From the IMG/VR virus record IMGVR_UViG_3300029305_009755: 64,000 bases of DNA; one strand, given 5' to 3'. Every line of letters starts with the position of its first letter. The stretch's first letter is position 1. The DNA comes from an uncultured virus (IMG/VR IMGVR_UViG_3300029305_009755) (lineage: Duplodnaviria; Heunggongvirae; Uroviricota; Caudoviricetes). Positions 3,178-61,615 of this stretch are shown one piece after another. Below the pieces are notes generated by a model. The model searched no databases. It was not told the origin of the DNA and saw nothing but the letters and a program-made list of their open reading frames with translations. The position numbers and the translations under genes are program-made.

Positions 3178-4047
3178 ATGCCGATAGAAGACCTTACAGA
3201 TCGTAAATTTGGAAAATTAACTGTAATCGGACCCATGAAAAGAGTCGTCCTAAAAAATGGAAAAACAAGACCATATTGGTTTTGTAGATGCGATTGTGGG
3301 ACTGAGAAATTCATAGATCACTATGCACTTGTACGTAAGAACAAAGGTGCTACCAGAAGCTGCGGATGTGTGGTAACCAACCCTGGTTTAAAAGGAACAG
3401 GATACGACCTTCGTAATCAGAAGTTCGGCAAATGGGTTGTAGATGACTGCGACCCTATCAGAAAAAACAGGGGCTATTTCTGGAAATGTACATGTGAATG
3501 CGGTTCCAAAGGAGAAATCCTTCAGTACAATCTGACTTCAGGTCAATCCACATCATGTGGATGCTACAGGAGAGAGGTGATGGGTGCATTGAACTTTACT
3601 CACGGCATGAGTCGCACTCGTATATACAGGATATGGGGCGACATGAAATCCAGATGTACGAATCCTAACTTCACAGAATATGAAAACTATGGTGGAAGGG
3701 GCATATCGATCTGCGAAGAATGGGCTAATTCCTTTGAAACATTCAAAGAGTGGGCCTTAGACAATGGTTATTCGGAAAATCTGACTATAGATCGTATAGA
3801 CAATAACGGGAACTATTGTCCAGAAAACTGCCGTTGGATAACTCTATTAGAACAGGCTAATAATACTCGTGCAAACAAGCATATCTCTCTAAATGGTGAA
3901 ACTCACACAATTTCTGAATGGTCCAGGATATTTGATGTAAATCCAAGATCATTTAGAGATTGGGTCAAAATATACAAGTCTGAAGAAGATATTTTGAGAA
4001 AAGTAGAGGAATATAAAAATAAAAAGGGGCCTAGGCCCCCGGTTTGA
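3178..4047 (+). CDS. HNH homing endonuclease (two CxCxCG...SCGC N-terminal domains, HNH, C-terminal DNA-binding domain)
   Basis: DLTDRKFGKLTV..W.CRCDCG..SCGC x2; YGGRGI.IC.EW; LTIDRIDNNGNYCPENCRW; visibly AT-richer than flanks; opposite strand to neighbours. Confidence 0.85.
   Translation: MPIEDLTDRKFGKLTVIGPMKRVVLKNGKTRPYWFCRCDCGTEKFIDHYALVRKNKGATRSCGCVVTNPGLKGTGYDLRNQKFGKWVVDDCDPIRKNRGYFWKCTCECGSKGEILQYNLTSGQSTSCGCYRREVMGALNFTHGMSRTRIYRIWGDMKSRCTNPNFTEYENYGGRGISICEEWANSFETFKEWALDNGYSENLTIDRIDNNGNYCPENCRWITLLEQANNTRANKHISLNGETHTISEWSRIFDVNPRSFRDWVKIYKSEEDILRKVEEYKNKKGPRPPV
4015..4039 (-). terminator. GC hairpin plus T-run terminator
   Basis: GGGGCC-TA-GGCCCC at 4026-4039 with A-rich run on + at 4015-4025, just after the stop of the 4049 gene. 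Confidence 0.6.
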
Positions 4048-6537: not shown

Positions 6538-6579
6538 GATAGAACAAACAGCTGTAATATAAATACGGAAATCCAGCGA

Positions 6580-6816
6580 TTAGTTCATATATTTCTTCCG
6601 AGCGGCATTCCTCTCCGCGGTCCTCATCCTGCGATAGCATCCGCAGGATGTGGTGTCCCCGAATATCAACGAGAATGTCTGTACGGATGTCAAGTTCCCG
6701 CAATCGCATTCGCATAGCCACATGACCTTGTCCCCACGGTTGGGTGCACGGTGCAGGACCGTGAGGGATCCGTACCTCTCACCGGTAAGATTGCGTTGCA
6801 ATGGTCTGCCCATCAT
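6580..6816 (-). CDS. Stand-alone CxCxCG...SCGC domain of HNH-endonuclease type (no nuclease)
   Basis: NLTGERYGSLTVL..WLCECDCG..TTSCGCY matches the N-terminal domain of 3178-4047. Confidence 0.7.
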   Translation of the reverse strand: MMGRPLQRNLTGERYGSLTVLHRAPNRGDKVMWLCECDCGNLTSVQTFSLIFGDTTSCGCYRRMRTAERNAARKKYMN

Positions 6817-45812: not shown

Positions 45813-46187
45813 ATGGCCGGGAAGACTAAGGCCAAGACGGTGCAGGCGGACGACCCGGCGTGGTGGTCATGGGAGATGGTGGAGGACCTGATCATGGACA
45901 GGGTCGCATGGGAGATCCTCCACTGGGTGAAGAGCAACCCCGGGTCGAACATCTCCAAGATGATCGAGTCCTCGGACTCGACCATCCCGGCCAACAGGGC
46001 CTACAACAAGACCAGGGAGATGGAGAGGGCCGGACTGCTCGTCGGCGAACCGGGGGCGGACTGGAGGAAGAACAGGACCCTGCGCATCACGCCCCGCGGG
46101 GAGACCATCCATGGGGTGATGATGCTGGCCCTGGTGGAGGTCAGGGCGATGCTGGACATAAGGGAGCCCCTGGTGAGGTGGAGATGA
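45813..46187 (+). CDS. Winged-HTH (MarR/ArsR-like) regulator
   Basis: IL..V..NPG.....ME.AGL........L.IT.RG. Confidence 0.65.
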   Translation: MAGKTKAKTVQADDPAWWSWEMVEDLIMDRVAWEILHWVKSNPGSNISKMIESSDSTIPANRAYNKTREMERAGLLVGEPGADWRKNRTLRITPRGETIHGVMMLALVEVRAMLDIREPLVRWR

Positions 46188-46396
46188 TGACGAGGCTGAG
46201 GGACTACGAGAAGATGGAGTCCATCATGGAGTTCCTGAAGGAGCATGGATCCAGCGATGTGATGACGATGAGGCTGGCCGGGATCGAGATACCCCACGGG
46301 CTGGTGAACCGCATGCACTCGGAAGGGCTGATAAAGAAGGTCGGGAAGAAGGACCATGGGAACTCCCACTGGACGTGGATCTGGGCGGTGATGTGA
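46184..46396 (+). CDS. Small wHTH protein (LK.HG family)
   Basis: I.EFLKEHG.S....M..AG......G...RMH..G.I. Confidence 0.6.
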   Translation: MMTRLRDYEKMESIMEFLKEHGSSDVMTMRLAGIEIPHGLVNRMHSEGLIKKVGKKDHGNSHWTWIWAVM

Positions 46397-46566
46397 TGTC
46401 GGACTGCTGGTACTGCGGCAATGACCTGTGCTGGGATTCCGACTTCAACCTCGACGAGGTGACCGGCGACCCAGAGGATGTGGGCATCGCGACGTTCCTG
46501 CACTACCCCGTGTGCGGTGCGGAGGTGCAGTACATGCTGCGTGAGGACAGGGAGGGAGACCTATGA
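46396..46566 (+). CDS. Small Zn-ribbon protein (third Cys apparently replaced by Tyr)
   Basis: CWYCG..L.WD.DF......GI...LHYP.CGA. Confidence 0.55.
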   Translation: MSDCWYCGNDLCWDSDFNLDEVTGDPEDVGIATFLHYPVCGAEVQYMLREDREGDL

Positions 46567-46833
46567 CGGTGCACAGGCCCCTGTCGGAACTGGACAGGTC
46601 GATACTCGCCTACCTGCAGAAGCACGGTCCCAGTTCCACTGCCGAGATGCGTGCGGCAGGACTTGCGTTGGAGCACGGCACGATGCGCCGTCTCCACGAC
46701 GACGGGTTCGTGACCGACCCTCCTTATGAGTTCAAGACGACCAAGGGCCGCGGAGCGTTCGGCAAACGTGAAGAGGGCGGAGGTGTCCGTCCGCCCCGAC
46801 CTGCGCAACGAGCGCGCGTGGAGGCTGGTGTGA
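46563..46833 (+). pseudogene. Small wHTH gene interrupted by a 58-nt insertion (46714-46771)
   Basis: Removing the CGTGA-flanked 58 nt gives a 70-aa protein ending GFVKRAEVSVRPDLRNERAWRLV-TGA, like paralogs at 55751 and 55957. Confidence 0.75.
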
Positions 46834-47467
46834 TGAAAGAGAACATTGAGATTCGCGAACAAGACGTACTGGAGTTGCTCAGATCCCTCCCTGACGGATC
46901 GGTGGACCTGATGACCATAGGGAGTACCATGGAGAGCTTACTCCCATATCCTGTGGAGTGCAGACAGAGGTGCTTGATGAGATGTACCGCGTGATGAAGG
47001 TGCCCAACATCTACATCTGGTGCAACAAGGCGCAGATTCCACAATATCTGGAGTATTTCATCAGCAGAGGATGTAGCTTCGACATCTTGACATGGCACAA
47101 GACCAACCCCACCCCGACCTGTAACAACAAGTATCTGTCAGATACCGAGTACTGTCTGTATTTCCGCAAGGGCGCACAGCTTTACGGTACGTATGAGACG
47201 AAGCGTAAATACTGGGTCTCATCGGTGAACAGGAGTGACAAGAAAAGATTCGGTCATCCCACATGCAAACCTCTGGACATCATATCGATGCTGGTAACCA
47301 ATTCAACCAAGGAAGGGGAGCTGGTATGCGATCCATACATGGGGTCGGGCACGACTGCAGTAGCCTGTAAGATCAATGGCAGAAGATTCATCGGAGGGGA
47401 CATCTCAAGAGAGTATGTCGATACTGCGATGAAGAGAGTGAAAGAGATAATCGGAGAGGTGGAATGA
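46833..47467 (+). pseudogene. N4/N6 (beta-class) DNA methyltransferase frameshifted by displacement of its 58-nt DPPY block
   Basis: N-terminus D.LE.L..LPD.SVDL, then frame change to W.K.NP, HPT.KP, V.DPY.GSGTT; the DPPY block lies at 46709-46771. Confidence 0.8.
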
Positions 47468-47634
47468 TGGACAGGAGATGTGTGGATGTGGACGGCGTGA
47501 CATGGTTCGTGTCGAGCTGCATGGGATGTCCGCTGAAGCGCGGGATGAAATGCGGGATGACGGGGAGGATATACCCGACAACCGTTCCCCTGCCGGGCTG
47601 GTGCCCGCTGGAGAGGATGCAGGGGTGGGAGTGA
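47464..47634 (+). CDS. Small Cys protein, CxxCP...PxWCPL family (56 aa, not in ORF track)
   Basis: MMDRRCVDVDGVTWFVSSCMGCPLKRGMKCGMTGRIYPTTVPLPGWCPLERMQGWE; overlaps both neighbours. Confidence 0.65.
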   Translation: MMDRRCVDVDGVTWFVSSCMGCPLKRGMKCGMTGRIYPTTVPLPGWCPLERMQGWE

Positions 47635-53157: not shown

Positions 53158-53876
53158 AGGTCGAGCTCGTAGCGTGCACCAACGTACTGGACAAGGATGG
53201 CCTGGGCCTCGGAGGAGCCGATCATGTCTGCAACCTCGCTGCCAAGAACTGTGTCTCCGAGGAGATGCCTCAGACGCATCACTTTGAAGACACGTACTTC
53301 TTCTGGGAGGATGAGGATTGCAAGTCACTGAAAGCGGCGATGTCCTCAGGCCACATGTCGATAGCCGAGAATGCTTCATTCACATTCTCTATCGAAGGAG
53401 TCTCCCGTGTCACGGAGATCCAGCTGGTGAGGCATCGCATAGGGGCTTCATACGCCATCCAGAGCGGACGCTATTGCTCACGTGACCCCACCAATTACGT
53501 CATGCCCGAATCGATCTTAGAGGATGTCGATGACCTTCTCGCGCAAAGAATCAAAGAGTATAATCGTGCACTCAGGTTACTCGATGACTGCATGGTGGAG
53601 AGGGGCATCAGCGCAGAGGACAGGAGGTACTTCTACCCGCAGGGCCTCATGACGAACATAGTCGTGACCGTCAATGCAAGGGAGCTTTTACATATGGCTT
53701 CAGAAAGGGGATGTTCTCGGGCTCAGACAGAAATCCATGAGATGGTCACGGAGATGGTCAGGCTCGCCAAGGAGGTCGCACCGGTCCTGTTCGAGCACGC
53801 AGGCCCCAAATGCCAGCGTCTCGGATACTGTCCCGAGAGGAAGGGGTGCGGTCGCTATTCCCCGAAGAAGGCATGA
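53154..53876 (+). CDS. thyX: Flavin-dependent thymidylate synthase
   Basis: GH.SI.E, F.IEGVSR, QLVRHR..S...QSGRY, N.RELLH...R....AQ.EI. Confidence 0.92.
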   Translation: MKVELVACTNVLDKDGLGLGGADHVCNLAAKNCVSEEMPQTHHFEDTYFFWEDEDCKSLKAAMSSGHMSIAENASFTFSIEGVSRVTEIQLVRHRIGASYAIQSGRYCSRDPTNYVMPESILEDVDDLLAQRIKEYNRALRLLDDCMVERGISAEDRRYFYPQGLMTNIVVTVNARELLHMASERGCSRAQTEIHEMVTEMVRLAKEVAPVLFEHAGPKCQRLGYCPERKGCGRYSPKKA

Positions 53877-54529
53877 CCATGTCCAGAGGATGCAAGACAA
53901 GACTGGATGCGGGGAGCAGATACAACAGGCTCACCGTGCTGGAGGAGGATACCTCGATGAACACGGGTGCCACGTGGGTGAGGTGCAGATGCGACTGCGG
54001 GAACATCACTGTACTCAGAGCATATGATATCACTTCGGGCAAGATCAAATCCTGCGGCTGCCTTTGGAAGGAGCTCACCAGGGCCAGAGCCACCAAGGTG
54101 GAATATGACGGGAGGTCTCTGACAATCTCGGAATGGTCGGAGGAGACAGGGATCTCTGCAGAGGCCATCAAGGGCAGGTTGAGGAGGGGCTGGCCCATCG
54201 AAGTGGCTCTGACGGCCCCTATGAACACCAAATTCAAGGCCATCGGAAAACACCGCAGGAGATCCGGGAGGAAAAAGGACAAGGATACCATGGTGAAAGG
54301 GATCATGGTAGCTCCCATACTCGACCTGTTGGGCGAGAGGGACATGAATCTCAGGGAACTCTATGAGGCCACAGGGGCCAAGCAGAGGAACGAGAAGGAG
54401 ACGGTGCGTCGCACCCTCCACCGTCTGCAGGAGAGGGACATAGTGTCCAAGGTGGGCATGACCAAGACTATCCACACGGTGGGGATATACCACCTGATAA
54501 AAGACGATGAGAGAGTCAAGGAGGAATGA
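53873..54529 (+). CDS. Nuclease-less HNH-endonuclease-derived DNA-binding domains fused to a wHTH
   Basis: Y..LTVL..CRCDCG..SCGC directly joined to .EY.G...TISEWS..TGI....I..RL.RGW..E.AL, then wHTH. Confidence 0.65.
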   Translation: MTMSRGCKTRLDAGSRYNRLTVLEEDTSMNTGATWVRCRCDCGNITVLRAYDITSGKIKSCGCLWKELTRARATKVEYDGRSLTISEWSEETGISAEAIKGRLRRGWPIEVALTAPMNTKFKAIGKHRRRSGRKKDKDTMVKGIMVAPILDLLGERDMNLRELYEATGAKQRNEKETVRRTLHRLQERDIVSKVGMTKTIHTVGIYHLIKDDERVKEE

Positions 54530-54771: not shown

Positions 54772-54911
54772 GTCATGTTGGAACAAAGGTTGATCGAGGA
54801 TTATTTCCCCCAACAGATATTCTGGGTCGTGAAGGGCCTGGGAGTATTCAAAACCAAGGAAGAAGCAGAAGAAGCTCGTAGAAAAGCAGGCTTAGTTACA
54901 GATGAGGAGGA

Positions 54912-55169
54912 ATGAGGATGGATTTCGGAGATGTGATCAGGAAGATGAAGGAAGACGACAGCAGGAGGTTCATGAGGCGTGGATGGAACGGCAAGGGCAT
55001 CTACATCCAGCTCCAGAACCCCGATGAGGGGAGCATGAACACACTGCCCTACATCTTCATGGTGACCAACCACCTGATCTCGGACAACCCTGATGCGCCC
55101 CGCGGTCGTGTCCCGTGGCTCGCCAGCCAGACCGACATGCTCGCAGATGATTGGGAGATGGTGCAGTGA
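54912..55169 (+). CDS. DUF2829 / Tad2 (Thoeris anti-defence 2) family protein
   Basis: MDFGD......R.GWNGKG.YI...PYI.......VPWLASQTDMLADDWE, the canonical DUF2829 signature. Confidence 0.85.
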   Translation: MRMDFGDVIRKMKEDDSRRFMRRGWNGKGIYIQLQNPDEGSMNTLPYIFMVTNHLISDNPDAPRGRVPWLASQTDMLADDWEMVQ

Positions 55170-59457: not shown

Positions 59458-59901
59458 ATGGCACTGATGGACATCCTTAAATCCAAACTGATTCCGGACG
59501 CAGGTCCGATAACCGTCTTAGAGAGATCAGGAGATGATAGAATGATATCAGACAACATTTCAACGCCCAATACAGGATACAATGAGATCAACACCTGGGT
59601 AGACGCCCCGTCTCAGACAGCAATACCCACAGATACCTCCGGCAATACCAGAGTGATCATCATGGAGAAGGAGAACATGGAAAGTGATCCTGTGAACAAG
59701 CCCAACCATTACTGCAAGGGAGGTTTCGAGCTCGGTGAGATCCTCTATGTCTGGGGGCTGCCCCATCGTCGTGCCAGTGCAGTGGAATACATCATGCGCG
59801 CCGGCGATAAGGATCCTACCAAGGAGATCGAGGACCTCAGGAAATCCATCCGCAACATCGAGATGGAGATAGAGTACTTGGAGAAATACGGTAAGATCTG
59901 A
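59458..59901 (+). CDS. DUF3310 (T7 gp1.7/SaV-like) domain protein
   Basis: DPVN.P.HY..GG.E....A..YI.RAG.K....EDL.K. Confidence 0.75.
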   Translation: MALMDILKSKLIPDAGPITVLERSGDDRMISDNISTPNTGYNEINTWVDAPSQTAIPTDTSGNTRVIIMEKENMESDPVNKPNHYCKGGFELGEILYVWGLPHRRASAVEYIMRAGDKDPTKEIEDLRKSIRNIEMEIEYLEKYGKI

Positions 59902-59903
59902 CG

Positions 59904-60950
59904 ATGTCTGAGACGGACCCTCCTAAAACATACGAATCCCGTCAGAAGGGGAATGTCACGGGCATCCAGAGGATGGTGGCCAGGAACCTGTTGGACCGCA
60001 TGTCCACGGACACGAACTTCATCGACTATCTGCAGGGAAATGGGTTCTCCGATATCGAGATCTTCGCCAGGACCGATCCCGGTGGGGATGGCGTGATATG
60101 GTTGCAGGATGAGGTCACCACCCTGACCCTGTTCGTCCCTACATTCGAACAGACCCGTGGGAACATCGCCACGGTATATCGTTCCATCAAGACCCTGGTC
60201 AGGGAATACATCGATGAGGGCAAACAGAGGACCTGGATGACATTGGACATCCCGGATTTCCCCATGTGGTCGGATCTGGAGACGCGCAATCCCCTACCAT
60301 ACGATGATGAGAGTCCGCCTGATGCCTTGGAAGGAGTGAATCTGGATCTTTCCCGGGCATTCGGAGTCATAAGGGACCACTGGTACATGTTCCATCGTCA
60401 TATCGGACCCAATGTGGCGGAGGGGAGATCCTCCAGGAATGAAGCCTCTGCGATGCTGAGCTATCTGTACGAATGCATGGGGCTGATGGCCAAGGATGTG
60501 ATACACATCGGTTCCAATATCGGCCTGCGTCCTGTATCCTTGCCCATGAACCACTTCTGGAGGAGCCCGTCTGACCCGGACCACCCCTACATCCCATATT
60601 ATCTGGACATAGAGGTGGTTTCCGGAAAGACGGTCCTCGGAAAACTGAAGGAGGTCACATTCAAGGATGGTGGAGTGGATCTCAGATTAAGAGGGGGGAT
60701 ACGCATGTGGATCCCGAAAAGAGCGATATCCAACAAGATGGATTATCCGAAATTCAAGGGACTGTACGCGGGACCGTCGGGAAGTACATTGAAAGTAGGT
60801 TATAGGTATGAGAGAACCAACGAGAGAGGAGCATCTGAGGTTGAGGGAGATATGGAGATCCTGCAGGAAGAGGACCATGAATCCGAGATGCAAGGATTAC
60901 CCGAAGTACGGGGGGAGCGGGATCAGGATGTGTCCGGAATGGAGGGATGA
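59904..60950 (+). CDS. Hypothetical protein
   Basis: 348-aa ORF; last 143 nt overlap the HNH gene. Confidence 0.65.
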   Translation: MSETDPPKTYESRQKGNVTGIQRMVARNLLDRMSTDTNFIDYLQGNGFSDIEIFARTDPGGDGVIWLQDEVTTLTLFVPTFEQTRGNIATVYRSIKTLVREYIDEGKQRTWMTLDIPDFPMWSDLETRNPLPYDDESPPDALEGVNLDLSRAFGVIRDHWYMFHRHIGPNVAEGRSSRNEASAMLSYLYECMGLMAKDVIHIGSNIGLRPVSLPMNHFWRSPSDPDHPYIPYYLDIEVVSGKTVLGKLKEVTFKDGGVDLRLRGGIRMWIPKRAISNKMDYPKFKGLYAGPSGSTLKVGYRYERTNERGASEVEGDMEILQEEDHESEMQGLPEVRGERDQDVSGMEG

Positions 60951-61269
60951 TTTCGACACATTCCAATCATGGGCCATGGAGAACGGATACAGACAGGATC
61001 TGACATTGGACAGGGTCTGCAACACCCGGGGATACTTCCCTGGGAACTGTCGCTGGGTATCCAGGAAGGCTCAGGCAAACAACCGTACGACCGCATCGTA
61101 TTACACGGTGAATGGTAAGACCCGTACGCTCGCCCAATGGAGTAGAATGTACGACATCCCGGCACATGTGATCCTCCATAGGATAGAGAATGGGTGGGAT
61201 GTGGAACGTGCTATCACAGAACCCCGTCACGTAAGGAAGAAGAGGGAAAGCGATGACGAAACGCAGTGA
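60808..61269 (+). CDS. HNH endonuclease catalytic and C-terminal domains (no N-terminal Cys domains)
   Basis: IW.....R..NP....Y..YGG.GI.MC.EW, LTLDR..N..GY.P.NCRW. Confidence 0.75.
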   Translation: MREPTREEHLRLREIWRSCRKRTMNPRCKDYPKYGGSGIRMCPEWRDDFDTFQSWAMENGYRQDLTLDRVCNTRGYFPGNCRWVSRKAQANNRTTASYYTVNGKTRTLAQWSRMYDIPAHVILHRIENGWDVERAITEPRHVRKKRESDDETQ

Positions 61270-61615
61270 TTACACAGGGATGAAGTTCGGATGGCTGACA
61301 GTCAACGAATATGTGGGCTCCGATAGCTACGGTAATGCCAGATGGGACTGTACATGTGCCTGTGGCAATCATACCGTGGTGACCTCGACCGCACTCAGAT
61401 CCGGCAGGACACGCTCCTGCGGATGCCTCCGCGGGGCCAAGTACCTATACGAGGGACTCAGGTTCGGAGCATGGACCGTGATCGAGGAGAAGGCACCCAA
61501 GGATCCGAAGGTACTGTGCCAATGTGATTGCGGAACCGTACGCAAGGTCTACCTGTCCAATCTGAAGAGAGGCACCAGCCTGTCTTGCGGGTGTATGAGC
61601 AGGATCAAAGAATGA
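61253..61615 (+). CDS. Double CxCxCG...SCGC domain protein
   Basis: D.TG.KFG.LTV..W.C.C.CG..SCGC x2. Confidence 0.75.
   Translation: MTKRSDYTGMKFGWLTVNEYVGSDSYGNARWDCTCACGNHTVVTSTALRSGRTRSCGCLRGAKYLYEGLRFGAWTVIEEKAPKDPKVLCQCDCGTVRKVYLSNLKRGTSLSCGCMSRIKE

Follow-up and report, generated by a model that had tools for sequence, protein, structure and literature searches.

Illegitimate recombination inactivates accessory phage genes, usually through a deletion, an insertion or a duplication that leaves one new junction. The locus described here affects a small gene and the DNA methyltransferase gene downstream of it in a 64,000-nt stretch of DNA from an uncultured tailed virus (the window). It resembles such events in that there is little or no homology at its junctions, no element was left behind and one lineage is concerned, but it has three junctions and keeps every base. 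The peel-and-paste transposition of IS200/IS605 elements is marked by the same tetra- or pentanucleotide to the left of donor and target, by end hairpins and by an HUH transposase. A precise donor joint, the lack of a target duplication and a kept orientation are shared with the present locus. Here, however, donor and target have no common left flank of 4-5 nt, their flanks differing on both strands, and there are no end hairpins (of 200 shuffles of the displaced block, 187 fold better than the block itself); no Pfam match to an HUH transposase occurs in the window or the overlapping viral record.

The scrambled genes of ciliates likewise have their pieces out of order, whereas the breaks here carry no pointer repeats and there is neither a sign of unscrambling nor conservation. 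In shufflons and invertible cassettes (Rci of R64, phiCh1), gene pieces are reordered and the protein product is changed, as in the window. These systems work by inversion between repeated specific sites beside a recombinase, with several states coexisting; repeated sites, an adjacent recombinase, coexisting states and inversion were, in contrast, not found here in the contigs and the window. The invertible system of phiCh1 is cited in the available portion of PMC8371274, where archaeal tyrosine recombinases are described as using att or dif sites with overlaps of 6-7 nt. Int-pTN3, the recombinase of an archaeal mobile element, rearranges non-att sites, and its family is represented in the present virus; according to the accessible text of PMC5495485, this off-target action of Int-pTN3 takes place on homologous stretches of at least about 100 bp, whereas at most 5 nt are shared here and the recombinase is a candidate.

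The intact methyltransferase gene is an ordinary member of the beta-class amino-methyltransferases (PF01555), whose solved relatives include DpnA, M.MboIIA and CcrM, with DPPY at residues 30-33 and the SAM-binding motif near residues 186-192. Unlike these, the gene of the window strain is broken.

Intact relatives and the exchanged segments

The truncated methyltransferase of the window falls into a 90% cluster of two members, the other being P0141, a complete enzyme of 227 aa that scores 112.8 bits against PF01555 (cut-off 26.7) and belongs to a different strain, with four substitutions and a different C-terminus. In the intact allele, motif IV precedes the SAM-binding motif I within one ORF, and D30-Y33, D186 and G190-G192 are invariant (D30, P31, P32 and Y33 across 95 aligned homologues); in the window allele, by contrast, DPPY lies in another ORF and frame than motif I. 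Intact relatives of the upstream gene, comprising 20 proteins in four clusters, are 68-75 aa long. The winged-helix label given to this gene in the preliminary description is weak, as its Pfam HTH matches (E about 0.02) lie below the cut-off, with 14.7 bits against 21.9 for HTH_24, and neither Pfam nor PHROG gives a match to P0123 at 1e-3. The 58-nt block used as a probe had 0 matches in the viral contigs searched, and the upstream gene, as query or alignment, had none in the viral or metagenome contigs searched and one weak, chance-level match (L075) in the genomes. Against the metagenome contigs, P0141 found only relatives of 42-63%.

Comparison with these proteins shows that two neighboring segments, of 58 and 146 nt, have traded places losslessly and thereby broken both genes. 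The ancestral order X-A-B-Y became X-B-A-Y (Table 1) with both orientations kept and without duplication or loss, a reconstruction that rests on proteins, from which the bases at the ancestral junctions and the side-by-side position of the two intact genes are deduced. When 72,000 triples of breakpoints were scored against P0141 and P0123, a single best one emerged, with breaks after 46707, 46765 and 46911. Reversing the swap in silico yields an enzyme of 230 aa that agrees with P0141 in 223 of 227 residues, with zero bases gained or lost and none of the four substitutions near any junction, along with a small protein of 70 aa whose final 35 residues are those of P0140. When the two genes were reconstructed independently with their ends left free, the same answer was obtained within a 2-nt AT ambiguity; this is the only latitude left by the enzyme, while the upstream gene uniquely fixes 46707/46766, the end of segment X being set by P0140. 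Every break is intracodonic (Tyr49, Ile27 and Asn46), and each restored residue is that of the relatives. Segment X is 94% identical to the intact 70-aa P0121 across the first 50 aa, and segment Y is 97.8% identical to residues 46-227 of P0141, its 169-aa ORF matching PF01555 with a Pfam E of 8e-28. With intact P0141 as the tblastn query, the window is matched as three pieces, out of order.

Table 1. Segments, reading frames and junction features of the rearranged locus (window positions)
Feature	Positions	Strand	Description
Segment X	46563..46707	+	5' portion (first 48 codons and 1 nt) of the small gene for a putative winged-helix protein of 70 aa
Segment B (58 nt)	46708..46765	+	Methyltransferase fragment out of place, starting inside the Ile27 codon and ending inside the Asn46 codon; carries DPPY (catalytic motif IV)
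Segment A (146 nt)	46766..46911	+	Remaining 3' portion of the small gene, with its stop at 46831-46833, and first 79 nt of the methyltransferase gene (ATG 46833)
Segment Y	46912..47467	+	Remainder of the beta-class amino-methyltransferase gene (PF01555), open through to its stop
143-aa ORF	46563..46994	+	Product of the swap
161-aa ORF (P0001)	46982..47467	+	Residual C-terminal ORF without motif IV; on 12 contigs
CGTGA	46709..46713	+	Starts 1 nt after the X|B break, at the start of B
CGTGA	46767..46771	+	Starts 1 nt after the B|A break, at the start of A
A|Y junction	46911..46912	+	Scar at the former place of B; 2-nt AT microhomology

Much of what had been noted in the preliminary description is borne out. 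The DPPY block does lie within the upstream gene, the methyltransferase downstream lacks DPPY and changes frame near 46912, and removal of 58 nt gives an upstream protein of 70 aa whose stop overlaps ATG 46833; CGTGA is present at 46709 and 46767, 58 nt apart, as is TGACC at 46711 and 46912. The boundaries drawn from these short motifs need correction. CGTGA was taken to delimit the block as a repeat at its breaks, but at two of them it begins only after a mismatched base, 1 nt further to the right, and the best triple places the block at 46708-46765. The CGTGA boundaries would require Phe at position 49, which is seen in 0 of 20 relatives, and reinsertion at the positions first proposed gives 205-219 identities against 223 with the corrected ones. 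The suggested circle with the junction CGTGACC depends on the same wrong boundaries. Nor were 3 nt lost from a VDLIVTDPPY motif, since the reversed swap gives the enzyme identical at 223 of 227 positions while conserving every base.

Two further observations concern the immediate surroundings. P0140 is a chimera of two tandem paralogues, joining the N-terminus of the first to the rest of the second (window 46187-46396 and 46563-46833), which suggests recombination between tandem paralogues. In the upstream small CxxC protein (46396-46566), Tyr replaces the second-pair Cys of four of five cluster relatives, possibly a second local loss of function.

The virus and its host

The window is part of a tailed virus, and proteins identical to those it encodes occur on contigs of up to 81,639 nt. 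Two IMG/VR records are 100% identical to the window from 47570 or 47587 onward, so that they end just short of the locus, and they supply terminase and portal-region genes. Contigs from three runs share the start at 47587 with one of these records, the other starting at 47570; this clustering of ends within 47570-47598 may reflect a systematic coverage dip, a strain branch point or a genome end. The virus encodes RecE-like and Erf-like proteins as well as a tyrosine recombinase of 310 aa with R-K-HxxR-H-Y catalytic motifs, which is found in an overlapping record (L163:1154-2086, minus strand), about 11.5-12.4 kb past the end of the window and about 29 kb from the scrambled locus.

The nearest relative of the RecE-like protein is that of Caudoviricetes sp. 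vir335, whose host belongs to the Methanomassiliicoccales, and two clusters of neighboring genes contain members named Candidatus Methanomethylophilaceae; on these grounds, we infer that the host is a gut methanogen. Of the 399 ORFs of vir335, 63 match the virus in largely conserved order, and no other out-of-order gene emerged from this comparison, which is insensitive (about 25-60% identity over those 63 ORFs). No integrase is listed in the vir335 annotation. The two halves of the vir335 nucleotide kinase match window 54879-55166 and 59632-59895, about 4.5 kb apart, and represent either two partial homologues or one gene split by an insertion. The genome also contains several scattered genes, or remnants of genes, for related HNH-type endonucleases (window 3178-4044, 6578-6792, 53810-54529 and 60808-61432). 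The tetranucleotide CTAG is strongly under-represented across the whole window, with 14 observed against 53 expected, and is a possible host restriction target.

Occurrence and origin of the scrambled order

Among the best four of 21 runs listed, all four carry the scrambled order, each on a single contig bridging all three junctions, and their contigs contain no other letters or joints at the locus. The preliminary description had left a choice between a reversible switch, a one-off rearrangement and an assembly error, and an error of a single assembly does not account for the contigs of all four runs. An artefact of assembly or library preparation is very unlikely more generally: the four runs were assembled separately, the fused 143-aa protein (exact sequence on eight contigs, sole member of its cluster) occurs in the JGI, Logan and ENA sets, and the surroundings of the junctions are free of repeats exceeding 20 nt. 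On the other side, everything derives from assembled contigs, of depth 3.4-6.5, from faecal metagenomes of 2018 that possibly belong to one campaign, and one of the four runs may be the source of the window itself; 15 of the 21 runs have small shares and count as no evidence. A reversible switch, in which a recombinase would move the DPPY block between two sites and so toggle methylation and the upstream gene together, is very unlikely, no positive evidence for it having been found. The lossless move would be reversible in principle, a tyrosine recombinase is encoded by the same virus, one of the six junctions examined, the ancestral X|A site, bears an 8-of-11 dyad whose 8-nt spacer ends at the break (background 1.5%), and poly-G tracts hint at on/off switching in this enzyme family. 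Yet no unscrambled copy of the window strain occurs in the contigs of the four runs, although contigs at depth 3-7 lose minority forms, or as an identical protein in the clusters, and P0141 belongs to another strain. Likeness among the three sites is limited to 11, 5 and 6 of 30 nt, with a dyad at one only, and no att-like pair of sites was found at the breaks; the recombinase gene is distant, with none among the 113 ORFs of the window, and a free duplex circle of 58 bp is too stiff to form readily. Recurrence is also absent. No second scrambled form was found among the 5.8 billion clusters and 1.84 billion representatives searched, and in the comparison with relatives that had been proposed as a check, none of the 154 homologous loci, which at 37-64% identity are all distant, is out of order: 117 are intact, with DPPY before motif I in one ORF, and the 37 flagged ones are frameshifted, truncated or motif variants, yet collinear. 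It is likewise very unlikely that an enzyme of these archaeal viruses or their hosts, perhaps the tyrosine recombinase of the virus, excises and reinserts sub-gene pieces exactly, needing no homology and leaving no target duplication, and in both directions, so that the 58-nt block toggles both genes. If both orders were to coexist, this would be a new mode of gene switching that moves an active-site segment.

As it stands, the window encodes a 143-aa chimera (small-gene N-terminal part, DPPY block, out-of-frame linker, methyltransferase N-terminus and short out-of-frame tail) and the 161-aa remnant, and both genes are presumably dead. That a working enzyme nevertheless arises, through unscrambling at the RNA level, recoding or assembly of the two fragments, is most improbable, even though DPPY and the methyltransferase N-terminus share one frame of the 143-aa ORF and GAGGTG, a plausible ribosome-binding site, precedes the ATG of the 161-aa ORF. 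There is no bulge-helix-bulge (any two junctions form 2 of the 4 central pairs), folding is not above that of shuffles (z 0.53), residues 46-69 lie in no ORF with a start, except partly if GTG at 46958 is used, and a single clonal occurrence gives no conservation. In an AlphaFold model of P0141 (mean pLDDT 85.4, block pLDDT 98), moreover, the A/B break severs strand 26-29, the one leading into the invariant DPPY. It is also unlikely that A and B were duplicated in tandem and two deletions then occurred, or that the order arose by serial template switching. Neither route calls for a special enzyme, the RecE-like and Erf-like genes are at hand and the P0140 chimera shows that the region recombines, but two junctions are without microhomology. 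A concerted event is also simpler, since duplication and two deletions need three independent events coinciding to the base.

A recent, one-off and lossless cut-and-rejoin, fixed in one clonal lineage and inactivating a dispensable gene pair, is the probable origin of the locus. A one-off illegitimate event had been proposed before and is the best supported of the three original options, but not for the reason then given, a loss of 3 nt, as nothing was lost. Its recency follows from the mere four substitutions relative to P0141 and the lack of further decay. Such an event would have been one concerted break-and-religate reaction rather than homology-driven slippage, in which either B came out and was religated 146 nt upstream or, just as well, A shifted 58 nt downstream. 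The new junctions have 0, 0 and 2 nt of exact microhomology, which is unremarkable given that 65% of random triples have at least two junctions with none. Two other features were noticed post hoc: a 5-nt in-register run lies 1 nt from two of the breaks, as in 1.7% of 200,000 random triples (P about 0.017), and all three ancestral breaks, GT^AC, GA^TC and AA^TG, have a TA/AT center (0.09%, P about 0.0009). These are unlikely for random breakpoints and argue against a one-off accident, as does an exact three-way conservation more orderly than that of ordinary accidents.

Within the one-off origin, strand exchange of the recombinase type is the first candidate for the agent, at rather less than even weight; blunt rejoining after nuclease cuts is a comparable possibility, and replication-based routes take the smaller remainder. 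In the former case, a tyrosine recombinase or similar nicking-closing enzyme might have acted off target on the 5-of-6 match beside two breaks. If strands were exchanged at the end of an overlap of 6 nt, one of them mismatched, the two blunt junctions observed would result; the third site has no such match. The tyrosine recombinase of the virus is a candidate for this role, not a finding. By eye, the junction flanks do not fit a Cas9-type cut, the IS200/IS605 target rule or 2-nt staggered ends, and a single restriction site was rejected as the ancestral 4-mers differ and the window contains many copies of GATC and GTAC.

Read as a one-off event, the locus defines no new system, but would be a clean natural record of a rarely seen type of mutation, in which three breaks within 204 bp led to a new order without loss. 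It constrains how the DNA of archaeal viruses can be cut and rejoined, and illustrates that a broken-looking gene can be a permuted gene. No published report of such a lossless micro-swap was found in a limited search of literature available in part, which is weak evidence of novelty.

Persistence of the broken gene and the methyltransferase family

The mutation may have been tolerated as that of an accessory gene. The methyltransferase gene looks accessory because its GC content is lower than that of its neighbors (0.49-0.51 against 0.59-0.62) and adjacent genes belong to larger clusters (two members for the enzyme against the 20 proteins in the four clusters of the upstream gene). In addition, vir335 is absent from the 15 best of the 1,506 phage matches listed for the methyltransferase.

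Poly-G phase variation of methyltransferases is known, as reported in the accessible part of PMC3711429. Of the 154 homologous loci, 152 were covered, and 136 remained after removal of 14 duplicates and two edge cases. A run of at least 7 G, always at one site before motif I, is present in 27 of these 136 distinct loci, 19 in frame and 8 shifted, the latter count being possibly inflated by homopolymer sequencing errors; the other 109 comprise 96 in frame, one shifted and 12 without a recognisable motif. Loci with the tract just before motif I include L002, L006, L046, L052, L060, L061, L064, L065, L110 and L132. The pattern resembles phase variation by slippage throughout this family of methyltransferases, the relatives breaking the enzyme at the poly-G tract more often than by a swap; the copy in the window has no poly-G run. 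Two other homologues (L005:4890-4965 and L009:4862-4937) have their frameshift at a different G run, situated in the glycine-rich loop that follows DPPY, and in Enterococcus phage 156 the homologous methyltransferase is annotated in two pieces (L177:289-1012).
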